Below are positions 4,923 through 46,019 of a DNA stretch of 48,147 nt, piece by piece. Below the pieces are notes generated by a model, which was given only the letters and a program-made list of their open reading frames with translations, ran no database searches and was not told the origin of the DNA. The stretch lies in the sequence record PV636260.1; one strand, given 5' to 3'. The first letter of the stretch is position 1. Each line of letters begins with the position of its first letter. A program made the translations under genes and the position numbers. Origin of the DNA: a phage.

Positions 4923-7900
4923 TTACCAGACACCAACAACCACTCGGCCCCCGTTAGGTAGGTTAACCGTGATCCCGTTATTGTTTATCTGAACCGTATT
5001 GTTTGTCCCGTTGAATGCAAACGATCCGTTATTTGCATACAAAGCACCCCTTACGGTTGCGTTCATGAAGTAAGCTGCACCATTCTTGTTAATATGCCAC
5101 CCTTGATTTCCATCCCAATTGTTAGACTGAATCGCGTTACCAATCATGGCGTTAGTAATAAATCCATCCTTGATGATCGCGCTACTTAGAATGACCTGGC
5201 CATTCTCAACAACGAATGGGTACTGAGTCTGACCATTCATTCCTGTCATGATGGCAAATCGTGATGCCTCAAACAAAATCTGCGCCTTAGCCGCAGCTCC
5301 GGAACCAATCAGAGACATAGCCATGCCTGCACTGTATTCCTGGCCGTTATACTTCAGACCGAGCTTGACGCCGTACATTGCACCAGTCGAATCCGCATTG
5401 CTCCACGAATCAAGTTTTTGAGAAAGAGCTGCCTCATTATCCCCAAGCCTCGCGCTTAACGACAAGTCAGCTTGCGTTCTCGCCTCAGTCTCGTTTGCTA
5501 TAGCCTCTCTGATATCAGTCAAACTTGCCTGGATATCATCACCAATCTCTGCCCTGAGTTGATCGATTTCACGCGATAGCGCTCCAGTCTCAGTTGCGAT
5601 AACTTCACGCAATTCGCTGTTGCTAGCGCTAATCTGATCGCCAAAACTTGCCTTCAATTGCTCGATCGCCGTCACTCGTGCCTGCGTCTCATCAGCAATA
5701 AGTTTCAGTGATTTCGTGTACTCGGCTTTTCGTTTTCCGTTCTCCTTCTTCATGTAGATCGCGTCTTTGTCATTGGCGAGCGCGTTTTCTATTGCCGCCT
5801 CTGCGTTAGCTGCGTTCTGCGCCGCGTTGTCGGTTGCGTTGTCAACAAGCCACTTGTAACCCGGCGAGTTTTCGATATCGACAGAAATCTCTCCGATGAT
5901 ATCGTCAACGTTTGTTGATGCCATACCTCTGACAAAATCAGTCCACTGAGACACGTTACCGATCCTGTCAACCGTCCTTACCCGATACCACACAATATTC
6001 CCTCCAGGCATCGGTGAGTGATAATACTCATGCTGCGGATACGGAATCAAAGAAAGCAAACTTGCGTTATCCACTGTTCCATCCGGTGACTGTTGCAACT
6101 CTGTATAGGCCGTATCTCCAGAACCATCAGAGAACCCCCATTTTGTACGGATACCAAAAACAACATCATCCGTAGCTGTAAGGTTAATCGGTCTGCCCGG
6201 TTCACCCTGTTTACCCGTCAACGTTGCCGCGACGATATTTGACCAGCCTGAAGTCGTGCCCGAACCAGCGACTGAGCGCACGCGAACCTGATAGTTTCCA
6301 GCGTAAATCCCTTCAACATAAACCTCTTTGTTTGCTGTCTGCGGAACGTTTTGCCAGTTGCCGTCATCCTTTCTCCACTGTACGTCATAGAAAACTGCGT
6401 ACGGCACTTTATCCCAGCTAACAATCATAGTTTCTACGCTCATCCCTTGGACGATTCTCGACTCTGAGGACACTTGCACGTTTTCCGGTCTAGGGATCTG
6501 ATCTGGTTCAACGATGCTTGTCGGTCGGTCGTCGATGTTAACTCCGTAATCAATCTCATCGTACTTGTTAGGATCGTACTCAACCGCAGTAATCTTGTAG
6601 GTAAATTCCTCATCGTCATCACCCTTATCGATTTTTGTCACGACGTACTGCTGTAACGCAATGTCTGTGCGGTCGATAGCGAATACCGTGTTAGGCTTCA
6701 CAGGAAAGCCAAAGCCAATGTTAACCTCTATAGTCTTACCATCCGCACTAACACTTGAGATTGTGCGCTTCACGGGCTTGCCATCTGGCTTATTTACGAT
6801 AATAAAGTCACCCGCGCGTGCATCAACCCGGAACGGCAAGAAAATCTGACTTCCAGACACTTCGAGCAAGCGCCCTGATAGGTTCATCGTCAAGTTACTT
6901 GACCAGAAGTTATCAGCTATTGCCACAACATCTCCGATTGTCGGGATCATACCCTCAAGACCGGTAGCGAAGTTTACCGTAGTGCTGCGGAGGTTGGTTT
7001 TCAGAATCCATCTCCCGCGTCGGTTAGCCTCGCTTCGACGTGTGCAACCGATCGCTGTAATGCTGGTTACGTTATTACCGAACCGCAGAGTCGCCTCACG
7101 ATCGAATACTGGCTCAACGTCCTGTTGATACATGTTTTGCTCGTCGTCAAACATCACGTTACACGTCGTGTACATACTCTTTTCGCTTGCGAACGTATAG
7201 GAGAAGTCACCATTAACAACGTTGTCGTTAGTGAAGATGTACGCAGGCTCACGCGGTCTGTCGATGATTACCGAGATGCTTTCGCCATTCCAGAAGCTCA
7301 TACCACGGAAGATTGAGCAAATATCTCGAATCACCTTATACGCATCAGTCTGTGACTGAATTATCACGTCGCAAAGGTAGCGAGGCTCCGTGCCGCCTTT
7401 CCCGTCAGGAACCATCTGGTCGCAATATTGCGCCGCCTCATATAGCGCCCATTTATCTACAGATATTCCAAGCTCTTTCTGATCCAGTCCGTAACGCTGA
7501 TTAATCATCAAGTCATAAAGAACCCAAGCCGGATTATTAGTCCACGCCTTCTTAAAAGTGCCATCCCAATTTCCGTTATAAGTTCGTGATTCCGGATCGT
7601 AGTTTGACGGAACGTTTACAATCTTCCAGCGCTTACGAATTGAGATCGTAGGTAACTGGTTTGGGAACATCTTCGAGTCGAACTCTACGAAAAGAAGACC
7701 TGTCAGAGGATAACGGAACTTGGCATCGATAACCTCAGCATAGCTTTTTACCTGAATTGCATCGACAACGTTTGAGTTATCAGAGTCTGGAGTCTTTCTA
7801 ACAATCCTGAATATCACCTGGTTGTTGAAGTTTGGTAAGTTTATTCGACGACTTCGATCGTAACCAGACATTGTTTTGCCTTCGATTACGTCAGTGAGAA

Positions 7901-8372
7901 CAGTCTCAAACGAACCACCATCAACCGCTTGCTGCACTTCGTACTCAACGCGAACTCCGTTTTTATCACCGTTGCTTTCAATTCGTACTCCGCGTGGCAT
8001 AAACATTTTTATACGTATTGCCGATAGCGTTTTATTGGTTACTGATATTGAGTAAGGATTATTGGTAGTAATCTCACGGTTTACAGTTACCTCGCTTGAG
8101 CTATCTTCCATTCCTTTTATGTATTCCTGAGTCTGAGTTCCCGATCTGAACTCTGCTGTTACTCCTTCAAAGTTGAATGATCCGTCCTCGTTCTGCACTG
8201 GTACAGAGTTGAACATCAACTGCCTAAGGTCGAATTTATCGTCAATCTCACCATCAGATATTGCTAACAGGATCTTAATCTTGTTGATTGAGATCAGGTT
8301 ATCTTCCATTTCTTGAGGTTTGTGAGGTTTTGGTGAACCACCTTTCGATCCGCTTATCACTTTTTGAATCAT
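4923..8372 (-). CDS. central tail fiber / tail tip protein, lambda J-like
   Basis: 1149 aa; size, position after gpI, and C-terminal region typical of J-like host specificity proteins. Confidence 0.85.
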   Translation of the reverse strand: MIQKVISGSKGGSPKPHKPQEMEDNLISINKIKILLAISDGEIDDKFDLRQLMFNSVPVQNEDGSFNFEGVTAEFRSGTQTQEYIKGMEDSSSEVTVNREITTNNPYSISVTNKTLSAIRIKMFMPRGVRIESNGDKNGVRVEYEVQQAVDGGSFETVLTDVIEGKTMSGYDRSRRINLPNFNNQVIFRIVRKTPDSDNSNVVDAIQVKSYAEVIDAKFRYPLTGLLFVEFDSKMFPNQLPTISIRKRWKIVNVPSNYDPESRTYNGNWDGTFKKAWTNNPAWVLYDLMINQRYGLDQKELGISVDKWALYEAAQYCDQMVPDGKGGTEPRYLCDVIIQSQTDAYKVIRDICSIFRGMSFWNGESISVIIDRPREPAYIFTNDNVVNGDFSYTFASEKSMYTTCNVMFDDEQNMYQQDVEPVFDREATLRFGNNVTSITAIGCTRRSEANRRGRWILKTNLRSTTVNFATGLEGMIPTIGDVVAIADNFWSSNLTMNLSGRLLEVSGSQIFLPFRVDARAGDFIIVNKPDGKPVKRTISSVSADGKTIEVNIGFGFPVKPNTVFAIDRTDIALQQYVVTKIDKGDDDEEFTYKITAVEYDPNKYDEIDYGVNIDDRPTSIVEPDQIPRPENVQVSSESRIVQGMSVETMIVSWDKVPYAVFYDVQWRKDDGNWQNVPQTANKEVYVEGIYAGNYQVRVRSVAGSGTTSGWSNIVAATLTGKQGEPGRPINLTATDDVVFGIRTKWGFSDGSGDTAYTELQQSPDGTVDNASLLSLIPYPQHEYYHSPMPGGNIVWYRVRTVDRIGNVSQWTDFVRGMASTNVDDIIGEISVDIENSPGYKWLVDNATDNAAQNAANAEAAIENALANDKDAIYMKKENGKRKAEYTKSLKLIADETQARVTAIEQLKASFGDQISASNSELREVIATETGALSREIDQLRAEIGDDIQASLTDIREAIANETEARTQADLSLSARLGDNEAALSQKLDSWSNADSTGAMYGVKLGLKYNGQEYSAGMAMSLIGSGAAAKAQILFEASRFAIMTGMNGQTQYPFVVENGQVILSSAIIKDGFITNAMIGNAIQSNNWDGNQGWHINKNGAAYFMNATVRGALYANNGSFAFNGTNNTVQINNNGITVNLPNGGRVVVGVW

Positions 8373-14542: not shown

Positions 14543-14564
14543 GATATTTCTCCTGATTGGTTAA

Positions 14565-14583
14565 TGGCACTTTTTGTTAAAAG
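14565..14583 (+). promoter_or_regulatory. copy of the ATAGCAC...TAAAAC element (TGGCACTTTTTGTTAAAAG), plus-oriented within the minus-strand tail module
   Basis: 17/19 match to the repeated element; TACGAT 18 bp downstream. Confidence 0.4.
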
Positions 14584-14626
14584 AGAATAGTGCAAACTTG
14601 ATACGATGATTTTACAGAAATGAATA

Positions 14627-18328: not shown

Positions 18329-18348
18329 ATAGCACTTTTTGTTAAAGC
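18329..18348 (+). promoter_or_regulatory. copy of the repeated element (ATAGCACTTTTTGTTAAAGC), plus-oriented
   Basis: Sequence match; lies between decoration gene stop and capsid terminator. Confidence 0.4.
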
Positions 18349-18365
18349 GTCAAAGTGTTTTTATG

Positions 18366-19133
18366 TTATGCATCAACCTCTGGCTCTGGCACTGCTTCTA
18401 CGCGATAAGCAATGGTTGCCGTCGTCTTGCTGGCATCGTTAGCCGTCCATGTGATATTGAAATCACCGACCGATTCTCCACCAGCAGGAGTTACAAGACC
18501 TGAGTCAGGATCGATAGTAGCGATGTTGGTGGCGTCAATTGACCACTTGCCAGTTTTATCATCAGCGTTCACAGGAAGAACATTAGCTACGCACTGAATC
18601 GTAACATTGTTCGGCTGAGGACTTTCCTTGTCGGTAGTGATCGTAGCTGATTCAACAAGAACAACTGGAGGTGGTGGCGGTGGGACGATGAAAGCATTTT
18701 GTTTCACCTGAACCTCAATGATGTAGCCGTCTTCATGCTTAACAAATCCACCAGCGAAGGTCCAACCTGCGGAACCAGATCCACCAGTAACAACGCCACC
18801 AGATCCAAATTGCAACTTTGAGAATAAGTCGGGAGCCTCATCAAGAGAAGTAAGCGTCCACATGCGACCGTGAGAAACTACGTTGCACACTTCGCCGTCT
18901 AAGATTTTACCGCTCAGGTGTTCATATTGAGAACGGAAAGCGATACCGTAAGGAGTCCCGCCATCAGAAAGTACTTTGACGACTTTCACACCATCAACGA
19001 TGCCGACAACCTGAACCGCCGCGCCGAACTCAATGTCACCTTGAGCCACACAAGCGCCATCAATATTGTAGGTTGAAGTATCAGAAAGATTTCCCGGACA
19101 CGCCGGGCGCAACATTAAATTTTCGTAAGCCAT
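18366..19133 (-). CDS. head decoration-like protein with C-terminal Ig-like (Big_2-type) domain
   Basis: N-terminal 150 aa paralogous to 19196..19672 (DTSxYNIDGACV...GAAVQVV...); PPPPPP linker then beta-rich domain. Confidence 0.65.
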   Translation of the reverse strand: MAYENLMLRPACPGNLSDTSTYNIDGACVAQGDIEFGAAVQVVGIVDGVKVVKVLSDGGTPYGIAFRSQYEHLSGKILDGEVCNVVSHGRMWTLTSLDEAPDLFSKLQFGSGGVVTGGSGSAGWTFAGGFVKHEDGYIIEVQVKQNAFIVPPPPPPVVLVESATITTDKESPQPNNVTIQCVANVLPVNADDKTGKWSIDATNIATIDPDSGLVTPAGGESVGDFNITWTANDASKTTATIAYRVEAVPEPEVDA

Positions 19134-24495: not shown

Positions 24496-25020
24496 TTAAA
24501 GCATGTCAAGAATGCTATTTACTGCCTCTTTCATTGCATCCTCAGTAGTGGCGACTACTGTCGATGCGGAAGCTGACGAGTTTTCGATATTGATTGAGGC
24601 TGGCTTATCGATTCCGAGATCCTTACCGATAAAGGAGGCATTAATAACACCGTTGGCGGCAAGCTGGAATTTTTGCTCGTTGATTACCGATTCCACAAAC
24701 TCCATAACCTCACTGTATTCTTCCTCTCGCTTCCACTTAATGATTGCGGCCTCGCTTGCACCGATGAATAGTCGGTATCCGGTCCAGGTGAAGACTCGCG
24801 GCTTATGAACTAGCGATTCATAAACGCCACCCTGAAAGCTGGCTGATTCTGACGCCTTGATTGCGTTGTCCTCAGCCCATTCGAAATACTTAACTGACAG
24901 ATCGAATAGTTGCTCAGGCGTCATTGCCCGGTTTTTAGCAAGAACAGTGCCGAACTTTTTCTTGTATAGCTCTTTGAAATTACCTCCCTGGACTACGGGG
25001 GCGTTCTTAGGTTCACTCAT
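24496..25020 (-). CDS. terminase small subunit
   Basis: RBS AGAGGA; 174 aa directly upstream of TerL. Confidence 0.65.
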   Translation of the reverse strand: MSEPKNAPVVQGGNFKELYKKKFGTVLAKNRAMTPEQLFDLSVKYFEWAEDNAIKASESASFQGGVYESLVHKPRVFTWTGYRLFIGASEAAIIKWKREEEYSEVMEFVESVINEQKFQLAANGVINASFIGKDLGIDKPASINIENSSASASTVVATTEDAMKEAVNSILDML

Positions 25021-25035
25021 AAATCAATCCTCTTT

Positions 25036-25057
25036 GTTTAACATTTAGTGCTATTTT
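25036..25057 (-). promoter_or_regulatory. copy of the repeated element upstream of TerS
   Basis: Minus strand ATAGCACTAAATGTTAAAC directly upstream of the RBS. Confidence 0.45.
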
Positions 25058-25073
25058 ACCATATTGCAGGCAT

Positions 25074-25096
25074 AAAAAAACCCGCCGAAGCGGGTT
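25074..25096 (-). terminator. intrinsic terminator ending the leftward early operon
   Basis: AACCCGCTTCGGCGGGTT + T7 on minus strand. Confidence 0.7.
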
Positions 25097-26809: not shown

Positions 26810-26837
26810 TTCTATTTTCTCTCTTCGTTGTCGATGA

Positions 26838-26887
26838 GGTGACTATATCAAATCACCCCACCGACGTTTTAGCAATTAGTGCTATTT
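26838..26887 (-). promoter_or_regulatory. repeated element (ATAGCACTAATTGCTAAAAC) plus hairpin with -10-like TATAGT
   Basis: Stop codon TAG of the kinase gene lies inside the element; hairpin GGTGA-N10-TCACC. Confidence 0.55.
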
Positions 26888-27454
26888 GTTGATGAACGTA
26901 GCGGCTATGTGCTGAGCGGTAATTTCAGGATGACCCTCAACAGAGAAGAAATCACATTCCTGATAACCGTTAACCCCGATCATATCGTCCAGGTAGATAT
27001 AATCGCGACTGTCGTTATCGAAGTTGCAACCGTTGCGATGTATGCGGCATAGCTTGACCTTGATATCGCCTTCAATCATTTGCAAGATCTCGTCTTTGAA
27101 TCCCCCGTCAGTAAATACCGAAAGTGAGTGCGACTCTTTCACCTTGCTTTCCGCTCGCATACCGAAGAATCGATTTCCGAACTGCGGCTTGATGACTTCC
27201 TCGCTAATCCAGATCATAAACTGGCGCGGGCTTTTACCGTTCAGGATTGACGCTGGCTCTTCTTTGTAACGACGGTCCTCATACAAGAACATGAAATACT
27301 CGTAGTTAGTTTCACCCAGGATTGCCCGAGCAATCTCAAACATTGGTGCTTTGAAGCTGCGCAAAGCTACATGATCGTAAGTGTCAGCCAGGATGCATCC
27401 GATAGTGTCCTTGCCTGCTCCAGGAGCGCCGTTTAAAATGATAGCTGTTTTCAT
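26882..27454 (-). CDS. P-loop nucleotide kinase (dNMP kinase / PNK kinase-like)
   Basis: N-terminal Walker A ILNGAPGAGKDT. Confidence 0.65.
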   Translation of the reverse strand: MKTAIILNGAPGAGKDTIGCILADTYDHVALRSFKAPMFEIARAILGETNYEYFMFLYEDRRYKEEPASILNGKSPRQFMIWISEEVIKPQFGNRFFGMRAESKVKESHSLSVFTDGGFKDEILQMIEGDIKVKLCRIHRNGCNFDNDSRDYIYLDDMIGVNGYQECDFFSVEGHPEITAQHIAATFINK

Positions 27455-28096: not shown

Positions 28097-28132
28097 GATT
28101 TATTCCTCTGATCGGTTGTTTAACTCAACGAA

Positions 28133-28181
28133 GGGCACTATATCAAATGCCCTTGAGCAAGTTTTAGCAATTCGTGCTATT
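28133..28181 (-). promoter_or_regulatory. repeated element (ATAGCACGAATTGCTAAAAC) plus hairpin with TATAGT
   Basis: Hairpin GGGCA-N10-TGCCC; element abuts the stop codon of 28180..28626. Confidence 0.55.
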
Positions 28182-28651: not shown

Positions 28652-28700
28652 GGGGAATCATAGCGCATTCCCCTTGATAGGTTTTAGCAATTCGTGCTAT
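28652..28700 (-). promoter_or_regulatory. repeated element plus hairpin with TATGAT
   Basis: ATAGCACGAATTGCTAAAAC; hairpin GGGGAAT-N8-ATTCCCC. Confidence 0.55.
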
Positions 28701-29010: not shown

Positions 29011-29040
29011 AAAGAAAGGGGAACCGCTCAGAGTCGATTC
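29011..29040 (-). terminator. terminator-like hairpin downstream of 29051..29689
   Basis: GGGGAATCGACTCTGAGCGGTTCCCC then TTTCTTTT on minus strand. Confidence 0.5.
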
Positions 29041-29050
29041 CCCGTTAAAA

Positions 29051-30251: not shown

Positions 30252-30285
30252 AACTGATTCCTCTGATTGGTTGCCATGCTTCAAT

Positions 30286-30335
30286 AAGGCCACTATATCA
30301 AATGGCCTTGCGGAAGGTTTAGCAATTCGTGCTAT
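30286..30335 (-). promoter_or_regulatory. repeated element plus hairpin with TATAGT
   Basis: ATAGCACGAATTGCTAAAC; hairpin AAGGCCA-N10-TGGCCTT. Confidence 0.55.
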
Positions 30336-31013: not shown

Positions 31014-31061
31014 GGGATTGTACCAGTCAGGACGAATCCCCTTTTAACAATTCGTGCTTAG
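31014..31061 (-). promoter_or_regulatory. repeated element (AGCACGAATTGTTAAAAG) plus hairpin with TACAAT
   Basis: Sequence match and position. Confidence 0.5.
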
Positions 31062-31552: not shown

Positions 31553-31577
31553 GCTCTCGTCCTCATTCGTTGTCGAT

Positions 31578-31629
31578 GTGGTTACTATATCGCAACCACA
31601 TGATCGCGTTTTAACAAAAAGTGCTATTT
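31578..31629 (-). promoter_or_regulatory. repeated element (ATAGCACTTTTTGTTAAAAC) plus hairpin with TATAGT
   Basis: Hairpin GTGGTT-N10-AACCAC. Confidence 0.55.
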
Positions 31630-31865: not shown

Positions 31866-32441
31866 TTACTTCTCCTCATCCAGTAAATGCGAGCGGAATT
31901 GCTCGACCAGCTTGTTGAGATCGGATACCGAGATATTGCTGCCTTCAAAATCCCTCAAATCGATTCTGAACGCTTCAACCTTCGCATTGAACACGTCGGC
32001 TATGCTCTTTCGCTTCCGACCTCTCTTGCCCTGTTTAGCTTCGCATATGACCTTCTTCGCTTCCTCACCTTCTAGTTCGGTTATGAATATCGTCACCCCG
32101 TCAACCTGATCGCGGTTGATTCGCACAGATACGGCCTTATTGTGCACCTTGAGCATGTGGCGCTTGATGATATTGGACACATACGACGCGGTGAGTCGTT
32201 CTAGCAACCAGGCTGATCGAGATGTGTACTCGTTAACGACTGCCTCATCAATCTGGTCATCGTTAAGTTCCACGCCATGAGTAGCCTTTACAATCTCGGC
32301 CTGCTCATTGACGTACACTTCAACCATTTGCTTTCCGGTGATTGAGAACTCATTCCCTGATTGGTTGATTTCAATCGCCTTTCGAATATAGTCCGGCAGG
32401 TTGAGTTCAAATTCTGTCACTTCTTTAAGCTGAGTTTTCAC
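31866..32441 (-). CDS. hypothetical protein, first gene of the leftward early operon
   Basis: GTG start after GAGGT; 191 aa. Confidence 0.5.
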   Translation of the reverse strand: MKTQLKEVTEFELNLPDYIRKAIEINQSGNEFSITGKQMVEVYVNEQAEIVKATHGVELNDDQIDEAVVNEYTSRSAWLLERLTASYVSNIIKRHMLKVHNKAVSVRINRDQVDGVTIFITELEGEEAKKVICEAKQGKRGRKRKSIADVFNAKVEAFRIDLRDFEGSNISVSDLNKLVEQFRSHLLDEEK

Positions 32442-32489
32442 TTGTCTATACCTCGTTGTCTATGGTTGTAACTTTCAACTTCGAAAAAC

Positions 32490-32519
32490 ATGTTACAGCT
32501 ACAACGTCAGATGCGTCAA
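32490..32519 (-). promoter_or_regulatory. candidate sigma70-like leftward early promoter
   Basis: Minus strand TTGACG - 18 bp - TAACAT, about 50 nt upstream of the first gene. Confidence 0.35.
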
Positions 32520-32851
32520 TGTCTATAGCTGCATTTTTTATTTTTGTAACCAGTGCAACCGATGCAACCGACTTTTTCTATAAAAGTAAGAACATCTATT
32601 TATGCGCGCGGAATAGTATGTTTTTTATACTATGCATCACGAAATATATGCCACCCTCAAAAAATGCGGTTGCACCTATTACGCCGATTACATACCAATA
32701 TATAATATAATAAATAAATAAATATATATTATCTATCTTATTATTATATATAGATATTTTATTATCTATAGGCCTATCGATTCTCTGGCCATTTTGTAAC
32801 ACCCCTGATGGTATACAACTATTACGACAATTACAACTAACGCATAGACGA

Positions 32852-32871
32852 ATAGCACGTTTTGCTAAAAA
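32852..32871 (+). promoter_or_regulatory. copy of the repeated element within the large intergenic region (no obvious -10 at the usual spacing)
   Basis: ATAGCACGTTTTGCTAAAAA. Confidence 0.4.
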
Positions 32872-33221
32872 TGGAGATGACCACCAGGCGAACTGGGTAA
32901 CACTAAATCCCCCCTCTCACAATCATTGCAATCTAAGCAACAAATCAACCAACTGTTGCACACCATGCAACAATCACATTTCATCATTCGAGATCAATCA
33001 TGATCGTAATTATTCCAGATATTCCAGTATTGATGGAATAATGAGCAATTATTGGAATAGCATTTTTTGCCACACATCAGCCCTGCCGATCGGGTATGAT
33101 TCATCTCATCAACCAATCAGAGGAGATTTGCAGTGAAATTAATCTGGTCGCTATTCGACGGTTCCGGCCTTGCAGGTCATGAACTTAACTTTGCGCGATG
33201 TCTTCCGTTTTGAGGTGATGA

Positions 33222-33749
33222 ATGATTTGGCACGATTACTTTACATACAATCCGAAAACTGGAAAGCTGTTCTGGAAAGAAAGAAAAGATATACACAAAT
33301 CAAGAGTTAAACAATGGAATGCTCGCAATGCTGGTAATGAGGTTGGCTCTTTGGGTAGTGGTGGCAGATATTTAGAAACTACACTTACTGTAAACGGAAA
33401 ACGTTATAACCTGAAAGTTCATAGAATATGCTATGAAATGCACTATGGCCCAATACCTGAAGGAAAGGCGGTTGATCACGTAAATCACATCACGACTGAT
33501 AACAGAGCAATAAACTTTGAGTTAAAAGATCATAAAGGAAATATGCGAAACACATCAAAACAGAAAAACAATACAAGTGGCATACCAGGTGTGCATAAAA
33601 ATAAACATGGCAAATGGGTTGTAAGGATTGGAGGGGGAAAGCGAGGGAGGAGGATTTACATAGGGTGCTTCTCAAGTTTTGATGATGCGATTTCCGCAAA
33701 GAAAGCAGCTGAATATGAACATGGATACCATGAAAACCACGGCAAATAG
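33222..33749 (+). CDS. HNH endonuclease with C-terminal AP2 DNA-binding domain
   Basis: HNH core VDHVNHITTDNRAINFEL; AP2-like SGIPGVHKNKHGKWVVRI...IGCFSSFDDAISAKKAAEYEHG; RBS GAGGTGA. Confidence 0.7.
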   Translation: MIWHDYFTYNPKTGKLFWKERKDIHKSRVKQWNARNAGNEVGSLGSGGRYLETTLTVNGKRYNLKVHRICYEMHYGPIPEGKAVDHVNHITTDNRAINFELKDHKGNMRNTSKQKNNTSGIPGVHKNKHGKWVVRIGGGKRGRRIYIGCFSSFDDAISAKKAAEYEHGYHENHGK

Positions 33750-33765: not shown

Positions 33766-33822
33766 TCGATCGGTGCGATTTGGCATAATTACCTCATCGA
33801 AACGAGATTGAGGAAAAACAAA

Positions 33823-34209: not shown

Positions 34210-34259
34210 ATAGCACTTTTTGCTAAACGAAAATGCGGGAGGGCTGCTATAGTTCTCCC
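34210..34259 (+). promoter_or_regulatory. repeated element (ATAGCACTTTTTGCTAAAC) plus hairpin with TATAGT
   Basis: Hairpin GGGAG-N13-CTCCC with TATAGT in the loop, then RBS GAGGTAA. Confidence 0.55.
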
Positions 34260-34284
34260 ATCAACAGAAAACGAGGTAATCACC

Positions 34285-35187: not shown

Positions 35188-35327
35188 TTTATATTCACAC
35201 TTTCTATACTGGCAAATTTAACAACGTAAAAAATGTTCGCGTTTACGATAGCCACCAAAAAGCAATGATGCAGAAAGTAGTTCTAGGCGGCACAACCAAA
35301 GAGTGCAAAGTAATTTCTGAGTACTGA
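35184..35327 (+). CDS. 47-aa hypothetical protein (not in ORF track)
   Basis: ATGA coupling with upstream stop; stop TGA immediately before the repeated element. Confidence 0.4.
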   Translation: MIYIHTFYTGKFNNVKNVRVYDSHQKAMMQKVVLGGTTKECKVISEY

Positions 35328-35378
35328 TAGCACGAATAGCTAAAGACAATCAGCAAGGGAGTAAGGTATATTACTCCC
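35327..35378 (+). promoter_or_regulatory. repeated element (ATAGCACGAATAGCTAAAG) plus hairpin with TATATT
   Basis: Hairpin GGGAGTA-N8-TACTCCC. Confidence 0.5.
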
Positions 35379-35842: not shown

Positions 35843-35892
35843 ATAGCACGATTTGTTAATATTGCCGTAAGGTCATTTGATAAAGTGACCTT
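35843..35892 (+). promoter_or_regulatory. repeated element (ATAGCACGATTTGTTAATA) plus hairpin with TAAAGT
   Basis: Hairpin AAGGTCA-N10-TGACCTT. Confidence 0.5.
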
Positions 35893-35922
35893 ATTCAAGA
35901 TAACCAATCAGGAGTTAATGCG

Positions 35923-36342: not shown

Positions 36343-36394
36343 ATAGCACTTTTTGCAAAACGCGTGTACCATTGGCGGTGTATCATTCACACCG
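36343..36394 (+). promoter_or_regulatory. repeated element (ATAGCACTTTTTGCAAAAC) plus hairpin with TATCAT
   Basis: Followed by RBS AAAGGAG and start at 36416. Confidence 0.5.
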
Positions 36395-36415
36395 TCAACA
36401 AAGGAGTTTATTGTG

Positions 36416-38509: not shown

Positions 38510-38535
38510 AAAGGAGGCTAAGCCTCCTTTTTTTC
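38510..38535. terminator. bidirectional intrinsic terminator closing the rightward block and the lysis cassette
   Basis: AGGAGGCTAAGCCTCCT + T7; hairpin spans the spanin stop codon. Confidence 0.75.
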
Positions 38536-39685: not shown

Positions 39686-39694
39686 CGCAAAAAG

Positions 39695-39725
39695 GCCAGC
39701 ATGTAAATCATGCCAGCCTGTAAGG
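39695..39725 (-). terminator. terminator-like imperfect hairpin + T5 between the small gene and holin
   Basis: GGCTGGCATG-N5-CATGCTGGCC then TTTTTG. Confidence 0.4.
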
Positions 39726-39917: not shown

Positions 39918-39950
39918 GATATAGCCTCTTTGTTTCGATGTGGTTACTAT

Positions 39951-39990
39951 GCCCGAATCCCTTCGGGCGTTTTTATCAATTAGTGCGATC
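39951..39990 (-). promoter_or_regulatory. variant repeated element (GCACTAATTGATAAAAAC) plus hairpin
   Basis: Hairpin GCCCGAA-N4-TTCGGGC followed by TAGTAA. Confidence 0.45.
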
Positions 39991-41901: not shown

Positions 41902-41938
41902 CTTCTGATTCCTCATTTCGTTTCTATGAAATAACTAT

Positions 41939-41977
41939 ACCCGACTTTCGCCGGGTATTTTTAGCAATTAGTGCTGT
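41939..41977 (-). promoter_or_regulatory. repeated element (AGCACTAATTGCTAAAAAT) plus hairpin, TATAGT after the hairpin
   Basis: Hairpin ACCCG-N8-CGGGT. Confidence 0.5.
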
Positions 41978-42929: not shown

Positions 42930-42961
42930 TTTTATTCCTCTCGTTTTGGTGAGGTAATAAT

Positions 42962-43002
42962 GCCAGATTCCATTCCGGCATGTTTAGCAAAAAGTGCTAT
43001 TT
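42962..43002 (-). promoter_or_regulatory. repeated element (ATAGCACTTTTTGCTAAAC) plus hairpin upstream of dam
   Basis: TAG stop of the VRR-NUC gene lies within the element. Confidence 0.5.
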
Positions 43003-45441: not shown

Positions 45442-45470
45442 TTGAATCGTTGTAACGTTTACGCTATAAT
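45442..45470 (+). promoter_or_regulatory. sigma70-type promoter for the HTH regulator gene
   Basis: TTGAAT - 17 bp - TATAAT; flanked by inverted repeat AACGTTTAC / GTAAACGTT. Confidence 0.6.
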
Positions 45471-45488
45471 ACACGGCATAAAGTAAAC

Positions 45489-45510
45489 GTTTTTAGCAAA
45501 AAGTGCTATA
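45489..45510 (-). promoter_or_regulatory. repeated element (ATAGCACTTTTTGCTAAAAAC) upstream of the helicase
   Basis: Its -10-like TATTAT is the complement of the plus-strand TATAAT region. Confidence 0.5.
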
Positions 45511-45521
45511 GGAGAATCAAG

Positions 45522-45974
45522 ATGAGTATTCAACGTATCGCAGAGTCAACTGGTGAAATCGATAAACGTCACATCAATGGTAACAACGGAACACGGCGCG
45601 GTAAAGATAAAAAGCCTCGACAGCGTTGCGGGTTCTATATTCATAAAGAAGAAACACGCGCCGGACTGCGAGCGCGACTTGATGCTCTTATCGAATATTA
45701 CGGCGGCCCTGCGGCCTGCGCAAAGGCTCTAAAAGTTAGCAATCAGACGGTGCAAGGCTGGAAAGATCGAAATATGATTTCATGGCAAGGCGCTGAAGCT
45801 GCGCATCGCGCTTACCGCCGACAGGGGTGCAAAGGATTTCGTGCCGCATGGTTGCGATTCGACCTGAAGTTTGACGGTAACGGCAAGTGCCTTGAGAAGC
45901 GATGCAAGAACAAGAAATTTATGCGCGTCGTGAAGAAGGAAGATATCGGAACTACCAATAGCATTTTTAGTTAA
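45522..45974 (+). CDS. putative DNA-binding regulator (Cro/YdaS-like HTH)
   Basis: RBS AGGAGA; HTH-like AACAKALKVSNQTVQGWKDRNMIS; Cys/His and basic residues. Confidence 0.5.
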   Translation: MSIQRIAESTGEIDKRHINGNNGTRRGKDKKPRQRCGFYIHKEETRAGLRARLDALIEYYGGPAACAKALKVSNQTVQGWKDRNMISWQGAEAAHRAYRRQGCKGFRAAWLRFDLKFDGNGKCLEKRCKNKKFMRVVKKEDIGTTNSIFS

Positions 45975-45977
45975 AAC
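45958..45977 (+). promoter_or_regulatory. variant repeated element (ATAGCATTTTTAGTTAAAAC) overlapping the regulator stop
   Basis: Sequence match. Confidence 0.4.
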
Positions 45978-45982
45978 AAACG

Positions 45983-46019
45983 ACGCGTAGCGGGTTAACA
46001 TCCTTATACGCGTTTTTTA
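45983..46019 (+). terminator. terminator/attenuator-like hairpin upstream of primase
   Basis: ACGCGTA-N17-TACGCGT followed by TTTTTTATTTT. Confidence 0.45.

Follow-up and report, generated by a model that had tools for sequence, protein, structure and literature searches.

To our knowledge, the transcription program of T1, a classic coliphage, is essentially unmapped, and for T1-like phages a search of the literature returned neither transcription start site (TSS) mapping nor transcriptomes. A closely related system, reported for phage TLS (PMC11447400), is the direct repeat aaATAGCACnnnTTGnTAAAA, 21 nt long, that lies between genes of T1-like phages. In that work the repeat was treated alone, and its function was still posed as a question in 2024, with a stoperator, an enhancer, or a UP-like element as the options (PMC11447400). 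The sequence analyzed here (PV636260.1), called the window in its whole length of 48,147 nt, is a Tunavirus (T1-like) genome. Its repeats are intergenic and agree with those of TLS in consensus, in orientation with transcription, in the three central-triplet subtypes, in number (about 18 intergenic copies per genome), and in lying approximately 76 nt upstream of start codons. However, the hairpins, the extended -10 at a fixed distance, and the conservation around +1 found here are absent from the TLS description.

The repeat consensus was matched 13 times in the window at ≤3 mismatches (0.03 expected), and a T1-family repeat, ATAGCACnnnTTGnTAAAA, was located at a fixed distance upstream of every hairpin. 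This included all four copies named in the original prediction, each of which follows a aaATAGCACnnnTTGnTAAAA repeat. A promoter profile was built from 551 unique copies, anchored on the repeat and drawn from 73 related loci. The unit begins with the element ATAGCACnnnTTGyTAAAA at about -50 to -32; after a fixed gap of 17 nt come an extended -10 (TGnTATAaT) and a C-rich discriminator, and the putative +1 is an A. G was present at position 37 in 90% of the copies, T at position 36 in 50%, A at position 40 in 90%, and T at position 44 in 87%, with TATAaT at positions 39 to 44, CCcC at positions 47 to 50, and A at position 51 in 81%. Across the 551 copies the TG at -15/-14 thus precedes a TAnnnT hexamer by one base, as in extended -10 sigma-70 promoters, in agreement with the original prediction that the hairpins lie within promoter-like units and carry the -10 in the loop. 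The composite pattern of the element with G-14, A-11, and T-7 gave 18 matches (0 expected). Canonical -35/-10 pairs were not enriched in the window (37 versus 38.7 expected), and the promoter unit has no -35 at sigma-70 spacing. Judging from promoter geometry, transcription would start at the conserved A at position 51, 7 nt past the hexamer; start codons follow 20 to 34 nt past this position, which is 70 to 85 nt from the start of the element.

Other readings of these motifs were considered. TTGCTA as a normal -35 was rejected, since its distance from the hexamer is a constant 22 nt. An alternative -10, TTTGAT at 17 nt, suits only the 26838-type subfamily, and the start would still fall inside the 3' arm. 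TAGCA-N5-TGCTA might be a palindromic operator centered at -42, although the symmetry is not maintained because position 14 of the element varies (C in 56%, T in 42%) opposite the invariant G at position 4; RNAalifold proposed a 3-bp stem within this motif, without covariation.

The promoter units and hairpins of the window are as follows.

26838-26857, minus (coding) strand: minimal hairpin, GGTGA / loop TTTGATATAG / TCACC.
26830-26865, minus strand: full sense-strand helix by RNA folding, 15 bp including three G.U pairs.
26867-26885, minus strand: upstream element ATAGCACTAATTGCTAAAA, the T1-family 21-nt repeat at about -50 to -32 (sequence match and PMC11447400).
26842-26850, minus strand: extended -10 TGATATAGT (TGn plus TATAGT), making up most of the hairpin loop.
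28123-28180, minus strand: unit upstream of the PNK gene; element at 28162-28180, stem AAGGGCA/TGCCCTT at 28131-28154, -10 TATAGT at 28137-28142; covariation was seen among its orthologues.
28652-28700, minus strand: unit with element at 28682-28700 and stem GGGGAA(U)/(A)UUCCCC at 28652-28673 around TATGAT.
30279-30335, minus strand: unit with element at 30317-30335, stem AAGGCCA/TGGCCTT at 30286-30309, -10 TATAGT at 30292-30297, and putative +1 A at 30285.
31014-31060, minus strand: unit with a degenerate element (TAAGCAC...); stem GGGATT/AATCCC overlaps TACAAT.
31568-31627, minus strand: unit of the predicted fourth copy; element at 31609-31627, stem ATGTGGTT/AACCACAT (31594-31601 and 31576-31583), putative +1 A at 31577.
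34210-34260, plus strand: unit with stem GGGAG.../...CTCCC at 34237-34259 around TGCTATAGT.
35327-35378, plus strand: unit with an 8-bp stem GGGAGTAA/TTACTCCC at 35357-35378, loop GGTATA, z = -5.07.
35843-35898, plus strand: unit with the one-mismatch loop TTTGATAAAGT, stem AAGGTCA/TGACCTT, z = -5.67.
36343-36398, plus strand: unit with stem at 36372-36398 and a loop that is approximately the -10 hexamer TATCAT alone; its orthologues gave the clearest compensatory series found.
39951-39989, minus strand: spacer-type unit; hairpin GCCCGAA-GGGA-UUCGGGC at 39951-39968 fills the spacer, and the remainder of CATAGT follows directly.
41937-41977, minus strand: spacer-type unit; AUACCCGGC-GAAA-GUCGGGUAU at 41937-41958 with a GNRA loop and one G.U pair, then U-rich AGUUAUUU.
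42960-43000, minus strand: spacer-type unit; AUGCCGGA-AUGGAA-UCUGGCAU at 42960-42981 with one G.U pair.
45454-45509, minus strand: unit with a long-range 8- to 9-bp stem ACGTTTAC/GTAAACGT around TATTAT; the upstream gene is divergent, an exception.

The inverted repeat GGTGA/TCACC at 26838-26857 has the loop CTATATCAAA, which reads ATTTGATATAGT on the coding strand. This loop had been described as identical in at least four copies. Three of the four that were named do share the exact 12-mer ACTATATCAAAT, on the plus strand at 26842, 28137, and 30292, but the copy at about 31578 has the loop GCGATATAGT and only the TATAGT part in common with the others. At ≤1 mismatch the 12-mer had 4 matches (0.37 expected), with the one-mismatch copy at 35875-35886; at ≤2 mismatches the 12-mer alone was not enriched in the window (7 versus 5.6 expected). 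The observation that a GC stem nearly always lies downstream of the element was borne out, as the sense RNA fold had a z below -2 in 13 of the 15 promoter copies of the window. The stem sequence varies from copy to copy, and complementarity is kept throughout. Folded as sense RNA, the 26838-26857 hairpin is bigger than first described: the helix at 26830-26865 has 15 bp including three G.U pairs (-23.4 to -24.6 kcal/mol; z = -7.07), corresponds to positions 21 to 56 of the promoter unit, and spans the putative +1 (A at 26835). No Rfam family was matched in the window.

The hairpins have two geometries, with either the -10 enclosed or the spacer filled (the latter also noted originally, for some copies), and their register relative to the -10 and +1 varies. 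Of 98 hairpins with stems of at least 5 bp, 24 lie only in the spacer and 20 overlap the -10. Among the 54 hairpins that enclose the -10, 17 have a 3' arm that stops at -1, and in 16 of the 24 spacer-type hairpins this arm stops at position 39 (-12). Perfect stems have 5 to 11 bp, the longest window helix reaching 15 bp with G.U pairs included; loops have 4 to 30 nt, commonly 10. The 5' arm starts at positions 18 to 34, at least 17 nt upstream of the conserved A, and the arms always stay within the promoter core. The conserved loop had been taken to imply sequence-specific recognition of the hairpin. However, the loop is the extended -10 and is conserved equally where the hairpin does not enclose it, which suggests that its conservation reflects its use by RNA polymerase as a DNA -10 and not recognition of the hairpin.

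The stems could be a functionless by-product, either of chance complementarity between the G-rich spacer and the C-rich discriminator or of templated quasi-palindrome correction. The profile itself is G-rich at positions 27 to 30 and C-rich at positions 47 to 50, and composition-matched left/right chimeras alone reach stems of at least 5 bp in 23% of cases. However, the real copies far exceed the chimeras. In a set of 137 non-redundant relatives, stems around the -10 of at least 6 bp were present in 33% of copies versus 7% of chimeras and stems of at least 8 bp in 15% versus 0.4%, while spacer stems of at least 5 bp were present in 23% versus 4% in shuffles; about 30% of the non-redundant promoters have no stem of at least 5 bp. 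Covariation was also above the controls. In a set picked by the loop motif alone, 80% of cells were paired compared with 62.7% after shuffling, none of 500 shuffles reached the observed pairing or covariation, slid-register controls paired in 39 to 54%, and six of seven pairs had changes on both sides. Compensatory series are present in several orthologue groups, and stems covary within and between groups. The compensation in relatives that the original prediction proposed as a check is thus present, and compensatory changes above both shuffled and slid-register controls are as expected of a selected RNA structure. Position-by-position covariation over all promoter families was weak (best z, 3.5) because the hairpins use many registers, and register-free chimera tests were used in its place. 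The structure is under selection, with a geometry, a strand bias, and a context dependence of its own. Neither the strand-specific wobble bias nor the context dependence is expected of a by-product, an explanation that we find scarcely credible.

The strand bias is seen in the mismatches. On the sense strand, helices with at least 5 of 7 Watson-Crick pairs had 26 G.T, 1 A.C, and 6 other non-Watson-Crick cells, and helices with at least 7 Watson-Crick pairs and one mismatch had 20 G.T and 2 A.C (P = 1.2e-4), compared with 48 versus 42 in chimeras; these event counts are not fully independent phylogenetically. In one series the G.U pair is intermediate between Watson-Crick states (GAGGACA/UGUCCUC, GAGGGCA/UGUCCUC, GAGGGCA/UGCCCUC). 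Sense RNA folds were more stable than antisense folds by 0.9 to 1.9 kcal/mol, several spacer loops have a C-G plus G.U closure around GNRA tetraloops, and with DNA parameters the antisense fold of the 26838 copy was interrupted (-6.5 versus -9.1 kcal/mol). Counting G.U pairs in minimum free energy folds of both strands gave no strand difference over distinct contexts (201 versus 211); this naive count is uninformative, and symmetric helix definitions were used instead. Spacer hairpins were also considered as antisense terminators acting through the A-tract of the element; one copy scored in this way, and the idea was rejected because the sense-strand wobble bias holds in the spacer class too. 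The bias is equally compatible with the non-template DNA strand and with RNA.

A DNA cruciform or hairpin promoter, as originally proposed, would have negative supercoiling extrude the repeat so that a single-stranded -10 in the loop stimulates or gates initiation. This would fit the commonest geometry, in which the -10 lies within the loop, as well as the 3' arms that end at -1 and the confinement of the arms to the promoter core, and in the four named copies either DNA strand can fold (-6 to -9 kcal/mol). However, both strands of a cruciform must pair equivalently, and every sense G.T is an A.C on the other strand, so the ratios of 26:1 and 20:2 argue against it. The register is not fixed relative to the -10 or +1, about one-third of the 98 hairpins (the 24 spacer-only ones and part of the 20 overlapping ones) leave most of the -10 outside, and promoters without a co-directional gene upstream have weak hairpins. 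Stems of 5 to 8 bp with 10-nt loops are, moreover, poor candidates for extrusion on the energetics of cruciforms. With two geometries and a strand-specific excess of G.T over A.C, we hold the cruciform to be very doubtful.

A hairpin of the non-template DNA strand could instead act in initiation, for example as a fork-junction mimic with double-stranded TGn/-12 and single-stranded -11 to -7, perhaps aided by SSB or a phage factor. Such a hairpin accounts for the sense-strand bias no less well than RNA does, and with the spacer-type 3' arm ending at -12 in 16 of 24 hairpins, the stem would cover TGn and -12 and leave a single strand from -11. However, a hairpin that fills the 20 nt separating the invariant A-tract from the invariant A-11 would be expected to end at -12 anyway. 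The geometry of the enclosing type is different, dependence on the upstream gene is not predicted, and the region from -30 to -1 is not known to become single stranded in sigma-70 open complexes. We regard a non-template hairpin as distinctly unlikely.

The hairpins were originally said to lack a U-tract and therefore not to be terminators. This holds for the -10-enclosing type, including all of the copies named, in which CAUCGAAACGA-like sequence follows with no U-run. A simple terminator scan reported none of the four named copies; the only promoter hairpins that it scored as terminator-like were the spacer-type ones at 41958-41937 (sense strand) and 39949-39970 (antisense strand). In a further reading, the hairpins would mark off "transcriptons" by acting as leaky intrinsic terminators or attenuators, with the hairpin and a U/A-rich -10 or leader partly halting read-through polymerase before the next promoter. 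The terminator-like score of 41958-41937 on the sense strand speaks for this, as does the GenBank record of phage Chapo, in which one spacer-type promoter hairpin is annotated as a terminator; the T1 late region was also described as terminator-flanked modules containing promoters (PMC11447400). Against it stand the missing U-run of the enclosing type, the C/A-rich positions 45 to 50 that follow most spacer hairpins, and the separate location of true U-tract terminators, at 29018-29043, 39693-39719, and 25079-25096. Termination as the general explanation is unlikely.

The stability of the hairpins depends on gene context. The mean ΔG was -12.1 where a co-directional upstream open reading frame (ORF) abuts the promoter (n = 142) and -5.6 where there is no such ORF or a terminator lies upstream (P = 1.7e-4), the latter class being small (n = 12) and having exceptions, such as 45509, which has a divergent upstream gene yet an 8- to 9-bp stem. 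Stop codons of upstream genes overlap the element; the upstream ORF 26882-27454, for instance, has its stop codon in the TAG of the element at 26867-26885.

The alternative of a 5'-untranslated region (5'-UTR) RNA structure, also raised originally, appears only half right: the putative +1 lies at or after the 3' arm and would leave the 5' arm outside the promoter's own transcript. In some copies, e.g., 26830-26865, the helix reaches +5 or +6, as a structure of the promoter's own 5'-UTR might. However, the 5' arm begins at least 17 nt upstream of the conserved A, and there is no alternative upstream -10/-35 pair that would start before it, which makes this reading highly improbable. With the +1 so placed, the complete hairpin would be possible only in transcripts from an upstream promoter.

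We therefore consider it probable, though far from assured, that the hairpin is an intercistronic sense-strand stem-loop in read-through polycistronic RNA, encoded within the core of the T1-family promoter. We infer both the folding molecule, RNA rather than single-stranded DNA, and the biochemical role of the stem-loop. RNA would start at an upstream promoter and read through, and the hairpin would fold in that polycistronic transcript. The stop codon of the upstream gene falls within or next to the element, and a ribosome-binding site comes about 20 nt past the putative +1, so that only the spacer and the discriminator are free to evolve between the two genes. In the enclosing type, to which the 26838 hairpin belongs, the spacer pairs with the discriminator and the -10 stays in the loop; in hairpins that fill the spacer, its partner is TGG(C/T) just ahead of the hexamer. 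The stem-loop would provide a structured 3' boundary for the upstream cistrons in the read-through RNA, and its candidate roles are a barrier to decay or processing, the structuring of ribosome-free C-rich intergenic RNA, and, for the spacer type, weak attenuation. Transcripts begun at the promoter itself would be without the 5' arm and would have an unstructured, A/C-rich leader. Points against this explanation include the length of the stems, which at 5 to 15 bp fall short of a typical RNase III site, and the lack of a U-tract in most of them, as well as the equal fit of the strand bias to non-template DNA, the small size of the class without read-through, and the promoters that have no stem of at least 5 bp. 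There is also a slim chance that the hairpin has a regulatory role in a new class of T1-like promoter, in which a sense-strand structure, of nascent read-through RNA or non-template DNA, couples downstream firing to incoming transcription with a putative element-reading factor. Expression of the whole genome would then pass, as in a relay, from one structured promoter to the next.

The T1-family repeat now becomes part of a testable promoter model, in which a spacer of fixed length joins the element, at -50 to -32, to an extended -10 and a putative conserved start. Most such promoters bear a second, overlapping code in the form of a covarying sense-strand stem-loop. The arrangement would be an example of compact dual-use sequence, a promoter as DNA and probably an intercistronic hairpin as RNA. 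In the annotation of Drexlerviridae, many of which are therapy candidates, such hairpins are now missed or called terminators.

Among known systems, the promoters resemble extended -10 sigma-70 promoters, including those that are -35 independent and activator dependent, in the TG at -15/-14, the TAnnnT hexamer, the probable purine start 7 nt downstream, and the absence of a usable -35. They differ in the strictly conserved 19-nt element at -50 to -32, in TTGyTA placed 22 nt from the hexamer, and in the C-rich discriminator. The early promoters of phage N4, which are used by its virion RNA polymerase, likewise have a short GC stem of variable sequence in a phage promoter. However, N4 hairpins form on the template strand at a fixed position relative to +1, with a 5- to 7-bp stem and a 3-nt loop, and are read by a dedicated phage polymerase. 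The hairpins described here have loops of 4 to 30 nt, a variable register, and a wobble bias that favors the non-template (sense) strand, and no polymerase gene has been reported for T1-like phages, as described for TLS (PMC11447400). Rho-independent terminators have a GC-rich stem-loop in common with these hairpins, and in a few spacer-type copies U-rich sequence comes next and a terminator is predicted or annotated; in contrast, the 26838-type (enclosing) hairpins are without a U-tract. RNase III sites have about 20 bp of near-continuous double-stranded RNA, compared with perfect stems here of 5 to 11 bp and a longest helix of 15 bp. Intercistronic mRNA stem-loops, such as the T4 hairpins, REP-type stabilizers, and the loops that bound the trimmed 3' ends of Rho-terminated transcripts, are likewise GC rich, have no U-tract, and lie between co-directional genes; a sense-strand G.U signature and, in some copies, GNRA-type loops add to the likeness. 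In contrast to those stem-loops, the hairpins of the T1-like phages lie within the promoter core, with the -10 as the loop or the 3' arm, and are found at nearly every promoter.

The hairpin at 26838-26857 is an inverted repeat, GGTGA/TCACC, flanking CTATATCAAA. The exact 12-mer ACTATATCAAAT occurs three times in the window (26842, 28137, and 30292), and a one-mismatch copy lies on the opposite strand at 35875-35886; these four matches at ≤1 mismatch compare with 0.37 expected. The original prediction of four copies with an identical loop thus stands for three, with one more at one mismatch. The copy it had counted as fourth, at ~31578, carries GCGATATAGT, which has only the TATAGT part in common with ACTATATCAAAT. 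Apart from this miscount, the hairpin observation is real and robust. On the coding strand the copies share a frame. The upstream element (ATAGCAC-N3-TTGCTAAAAC) is followed by 13 to 14 variable nt that include the 5' arm, and then by ATTTGATATAGT and the 3' arm; an A/C-rich leader comes next, ahead of a Shine-Dalgarno sequence and the ATG. The stem sequences are wholly unlike among copies while complementarity is kept (GGTGA/TCACC, AAGGGCA/TGCCCTT, AAGGCCA/TGGCCTT, and ATGTGGTT/AACCACAT). The window (48 kb, ~45% GC) covers nearly an entire genome, and a 6-kb stretch around the hairpin is 88 to 93% identical to T1-like siphophages (Escherichia phage AV106 and Shigella phages ISF002, Sfin-2, and pSf-2), the best match being classified as Drexlerviridae, Tunavirinae, Tunavirus. 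Related loci were fetched around the polynucleotide-kinase gene (72) and later around another gene (54).

The upstream element is already known as a T1-family repeat class. The reannotation of phage TLS reports the same 21-nt repeat, aaATAGCACnnnTTGnTAAAA, in 18 intergenic copies ~76 nt 5' of start codons, and the repeat occurs in T1, Rtp, and Rogue1 as well (PMC11447400). The TLS authors found only three sigma-70-like promoters, left open what the repeat does, proposing stoperators, enhancer sites, or UP-like elements, and mentioned neither hairpins nor a -10 (PMC11447400). Our literature search found no transcription start site or transcriptome study of a T1-like phage. In the window, the pattern TAGCACNAATTGCTAAAAC matched 13 times at ≤3 mismatches, where 0.03 matches are expected, and a looser search gave about 20 copies, all but a few of which run with transcription. 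Across all loci, the element half-sites TAGCA/TGYTA have an invariant G at position 4 (counted from the element start) and C (56%) or T (42%) opposite it at position 14; read as RNA, this pair is always G-C or G.U. RNAalifold proposed a 3-bp stem between the half-sites, with no covariation.

A position profile was built from 551 unique copies anchored on the element and aligned without gaps. The element occupies positions 1 to 20, and positions 21 to 35 are variable. These are followed by T (50%) at 36, G (90%) at 37, a hexamer at 39 to 44 with T (72%), A (90%), T (77%), A (66%), a/g, and T (87%), then CCcC at 47 to 50 and A (81%) at 51. The resulting TGnTATAaT, with a purine 7 nt further on, is the signature of a putative extended -10 promoter and its start, and it places the element at about -50 to -32. 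The TTGyTA of the element was considered as a -35 and rejected, as it lies a constant 22 nt from the hexamer, which is too distant. A composite pattern of the element, G-14, A-11, and T-7 matched 18 times in the window and never in 100 shuffles, and canonical -35/-10 pairs were not enriched in the window (37 versus 38.7 expected). The conserved loop had been taken to imply recognition of the hairpin. However, the ATTTGATATAGT positions are equally conserved where the hairpin sits elsewhere in the promoter, because they are the TGn-plus-hexamer of the promoter itself, so that the loop conservation reflects the extended -10. An A/C-rich leader, A-U-C-G-A-A-A-C-G-A, is conserved at +1 to +12 in most copies family-wide; an outer helix forms in many copies between its first 5 nt and a UCGAU-like sequence just after the element. 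Examples in the window are as follows.

26824-26835: A/C-rich leader after the putative start
31566-31577: A/C-rich leader after the putative start
33796-33807: A/C-rich leader after the putative start

Selection on the stems was assessed in 137 nonredundant promoters, counting perfect stems with the -10 between the arms. Chimeras made of left and right halves from different promoters, which preserve position-specific composition, served as the comparison. Enclosing stems of at least 6 bp were present in 33% of the promoters versus 7% of chimeras, those of at least 7 bp in 21% versus 1.7%, and those of at least 8 bp in 15% versus 0.4%. Stems of at least 5 bp confined to the spacer between element and hexamer reached 23%, compared to 4% in shuffles. 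Sense-RNA folds of 15 window copies had z scores from -0.7 to -7.1, 13 of them below -2. For covariation, we aligned every promoter with TTTG at positions 34 to 37 (alignment A1; 83 distinct sequences), a choice made by the loop motif and independent of pairing, and counted the helix 27-33/44-50. Standard pairs filled 80% of cells versus 62.7% in shuffles (0 of 500 as high), slid registers were 39 to 54% paired, the covariation score was 0.528 versus 0.246, and both sides had changed in six of the seven pairs. The sequences include the compensatory series AAGGCCA/TGGCCTT, AAGCCCA/TGGGCTT, AGGAGCA/TGCTCCT, AGGCACA/TGTGCCT, AGAGGCA/TGCCTCT, AGGGGTA/TACCCCT, GTGGGTA/TACCCAC, and GGGGTAA/TTACCCC. 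Orthologues of the 36343 promoter, whose loop is the hexamer, show GGTTGGCC/GGCCAACC, GGTTGACC/GGTCAACC, GTTGCCC/GGGCAAC, and TTGCCG/CGGCAA, and spacer-type orthologues changed from GCCCGG...CGGGC to GCCAGG...CTGGC. Stem maintenance by compensatory change in relatives, on which the original prediction depended, is thus borne out, and the hairpins are under selection.

The geometry of the hairpin is flexible. A stem of at least 5 bp encloses the hexamer in 54 of the 137 promoters, its 3' arm usually being the discriminator, with position 50 (-1) as its last base. Another 24 have a hairpin entirely within the spacer, from right after the element to positions 38 to 39; the hairpin overlaps the hexamer in 20, and no stem reaches 5 bp in the other 39. 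In both main types semiconserved promoter sequence forms the 3' arm (the C-rich discriminator in the enclosing type, TGG plus the first hexamer base in the spacer type), and the free spacer provides the matching 5' arm. No register common to all families was found (best pairwise z, 3.5); the rule is therefore a hairpin anywhere between the element and +1 rather than a fixed relation to the -10. The start of the 5' arm is always within positions 18 to 34, and a transcript from position 51 therefore cannot hold the complete hairpin.

We then considered which strand folds. A cruciform is a duplex-level, symmetric structure in which G.T on one strand is A.C on the other, and both mismatches are one transition away from Watson-Crick pairs. 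In A1 helices with at least 5 of 7 Watson-Crick pairs, the remaining cells were G.T 26, A.C 1, and other 6; with at least 6 of 7, they were 16, 0, and 3. Family-wise, there were 20 distinct G.T states versus 7 A.C states (60 versus 9 by sequences). Among 576 unique promoters, helices with at least 7 Watson-Crick pairs and one internal mismatch gave G.T 20, A.C 2, and other 15 (37 distinct helices, 14 after clustering of related helices; binomial P = 1.2e-4 for 20 versus 2), compared to G.T 48 and A.C 42 in random chimeric helices. These events are partly related by phylogeny, with at least 10 separate stems contributing. This strong asymmetry makes a cruciform unlikely. Wobble states join Watson-Crick states, as in GAGGACA/TGTCCTC, GAGGGCA/TGTCCTC (many phages), and GAGGGCA/TGCCCTC, links that resemble RNA evolution. 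Sense RNA folds exceeded antisense folds in stability by 0.93 kcal/mol (Wilcoxon P = 0.0045), whereas chimeras differed by 0.28 in the opposite direction; a second comparison gave -12.6 versus -10.7 kcal/mol. The hairpin at 26838-26857 is the extreme of this asymmetry: its sense RNA (26830-26865) forms a 15-bp helix with three G.U pairs (-23.4 kcal/mol; z = -7.07), and the opposite strand gives only an interrupted 4+2+5 bp fold. Several spacer loops are GAAA, GCGA, GAGA, or GCAA tetraloops closed by C-G plus G.U. A cruder count of G.U pairs in minimum free energy (MFE) folds showed no strand difference (201 versus 211 distinct contexts) and was taken as uninformative because MFE folding finds other wobble helices on either strand.

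The genes upstream run up to or into the element, where they end. At the following sites, among others, the TAG in ATAGCAC serves as stop codon for the preceding open reading frame (ORF).

26882-26885: stop codon within the element
30332-30335: stop codon within the element
31624-31627: stop codon within the element
33746-33749: stop codon within the element
42997-43000: stop codon within the element

Other stops either precede the element by 0 to 3 nt or fall within the central triplet (TAA at 39980-39982 and 41968-41970). Gene end and promoter element are fused, and the hairpin therefore lies in the untranslated gap that, within an array of co-directional genes, separates a stop from the following ribosome-binding site. 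In a simple scan, true terminators stood in a few places only.

25079-25096: terminator, bidirectional
29018-29043: terminator
38510-38530: terminator
39693-39719: terminator

Promoters abutted by a co-directional ORF (at least 30 codons) with no terminator had a mean of -12.1 kcal/mol (n = 142, nonredundant), compared to -5.6 kcal/mol (n = 12; P = 1.7e-4) for those without such an ORF or with a terminator just upstream. The latter value is close to the chimera baseline of -7.7, and this class includes the first promoter after a noncoding divergent region. The 45509 promoter of the window is an exception, being divergent yet having an 8- to 9-bp stem. The noncoding divergent region at 32440-33100 (~650 bp) contains a palindromic core of extreme AT content (32690-32770), several TGCAAC/GTTGCA repeats, a degenerate element copy (33055-33077), and two promoter-like TAGATA-17-(A/T)AT(A/T)AT sites on the - strand; it may be an early control region or origin.

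Some element copies depart from the usual unit. The copy ATAGCACTAAATGTTAAAC at 25036-25054 (-) has no -10 at the fixed distance, stands just after the 25079-25096 terminator, and directly precedes the AAGAGG and ATG of ORF 24496-25020, which comparison with the phage Chapo record identifies as the small terminase subunit. This copy cannot belong to a usual promoter, a hint that the element has a second role. A perfect copy at 32852-32895 (+) has GAACTG in place of the hexamer and ~330 nt without an ORF downstream; the T1 orthologue (locus L014) is similar. Two copies at 14564-14607 and 18329-18372 (+), with -10-like hexamers and no hairpin, are oriented opposite to the surrounding (-) structural genes and may be antisense promoters or chance remnants. 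At 45958-46014 (+), at the end of ORF 45522-45974, an element-like copy with two mismatches precedes ACGCGTA...TACGCGT and TTTTT, which together make up a canonical terminator and not a hairpin of the promoter kind.

These results show a promoter-like unit of fixed architecture whose core carries a selected hairpin of flexible geometry. The pairing signature is that of the sense strand, and the hairpins are associated with co-directional genes upstream. We infer that transcription starts at position 51 and that the folding molecule is the read-through RNA rather than the non-template DNA strand. The hairpin would then serve the upstream cistron or the polycistronic RNA. It could be a barrier against 3' exonucleases or a processing boundary, hold a C-rich, ribosome-free spacer structured, or insulate the ribosome-binding site that follows; the spacer type, with a UAUUAU-like sequence after the hairpin, may attenuate weakly. 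The stem is confined to spacer and discriminator because the promoter claims nearly every base between the stop and the next Shine-Dalgarno sequence. Compactness thus accounts for its placement, and the promoter's own transcripts would retain an unstructured A/C-rich leader.

No Rfam family matched the window. The promoter unit belongs to the T1-family repeat class (PMC11447400), and its sequence shows the features of an extended -10 promoter. It differs from an N4-type hairpin promoter in loop size, register, and strand; the enclosing type, to which the four originally named copies belong, does not match an intrinsic terminator, and an RNase III site would require longer stems. In the record of phage Chapo (locus L001, MT682715.1), a spacer-type promoter hairpin is labelled a terminator and an element-plus-hexamer unit a promoter (8067-8087 and 5740-5769); Drexlerviridae records are thus inconsistent in how they annotate such hairpins. 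The units have been seen piecemeal before, with no description as a class in the literature searched. The hairpin is a family-wide, covarying sense-strand structure laid over promoters, which offers a testable and concrete model for a question acknowledged as open in T1 biology.
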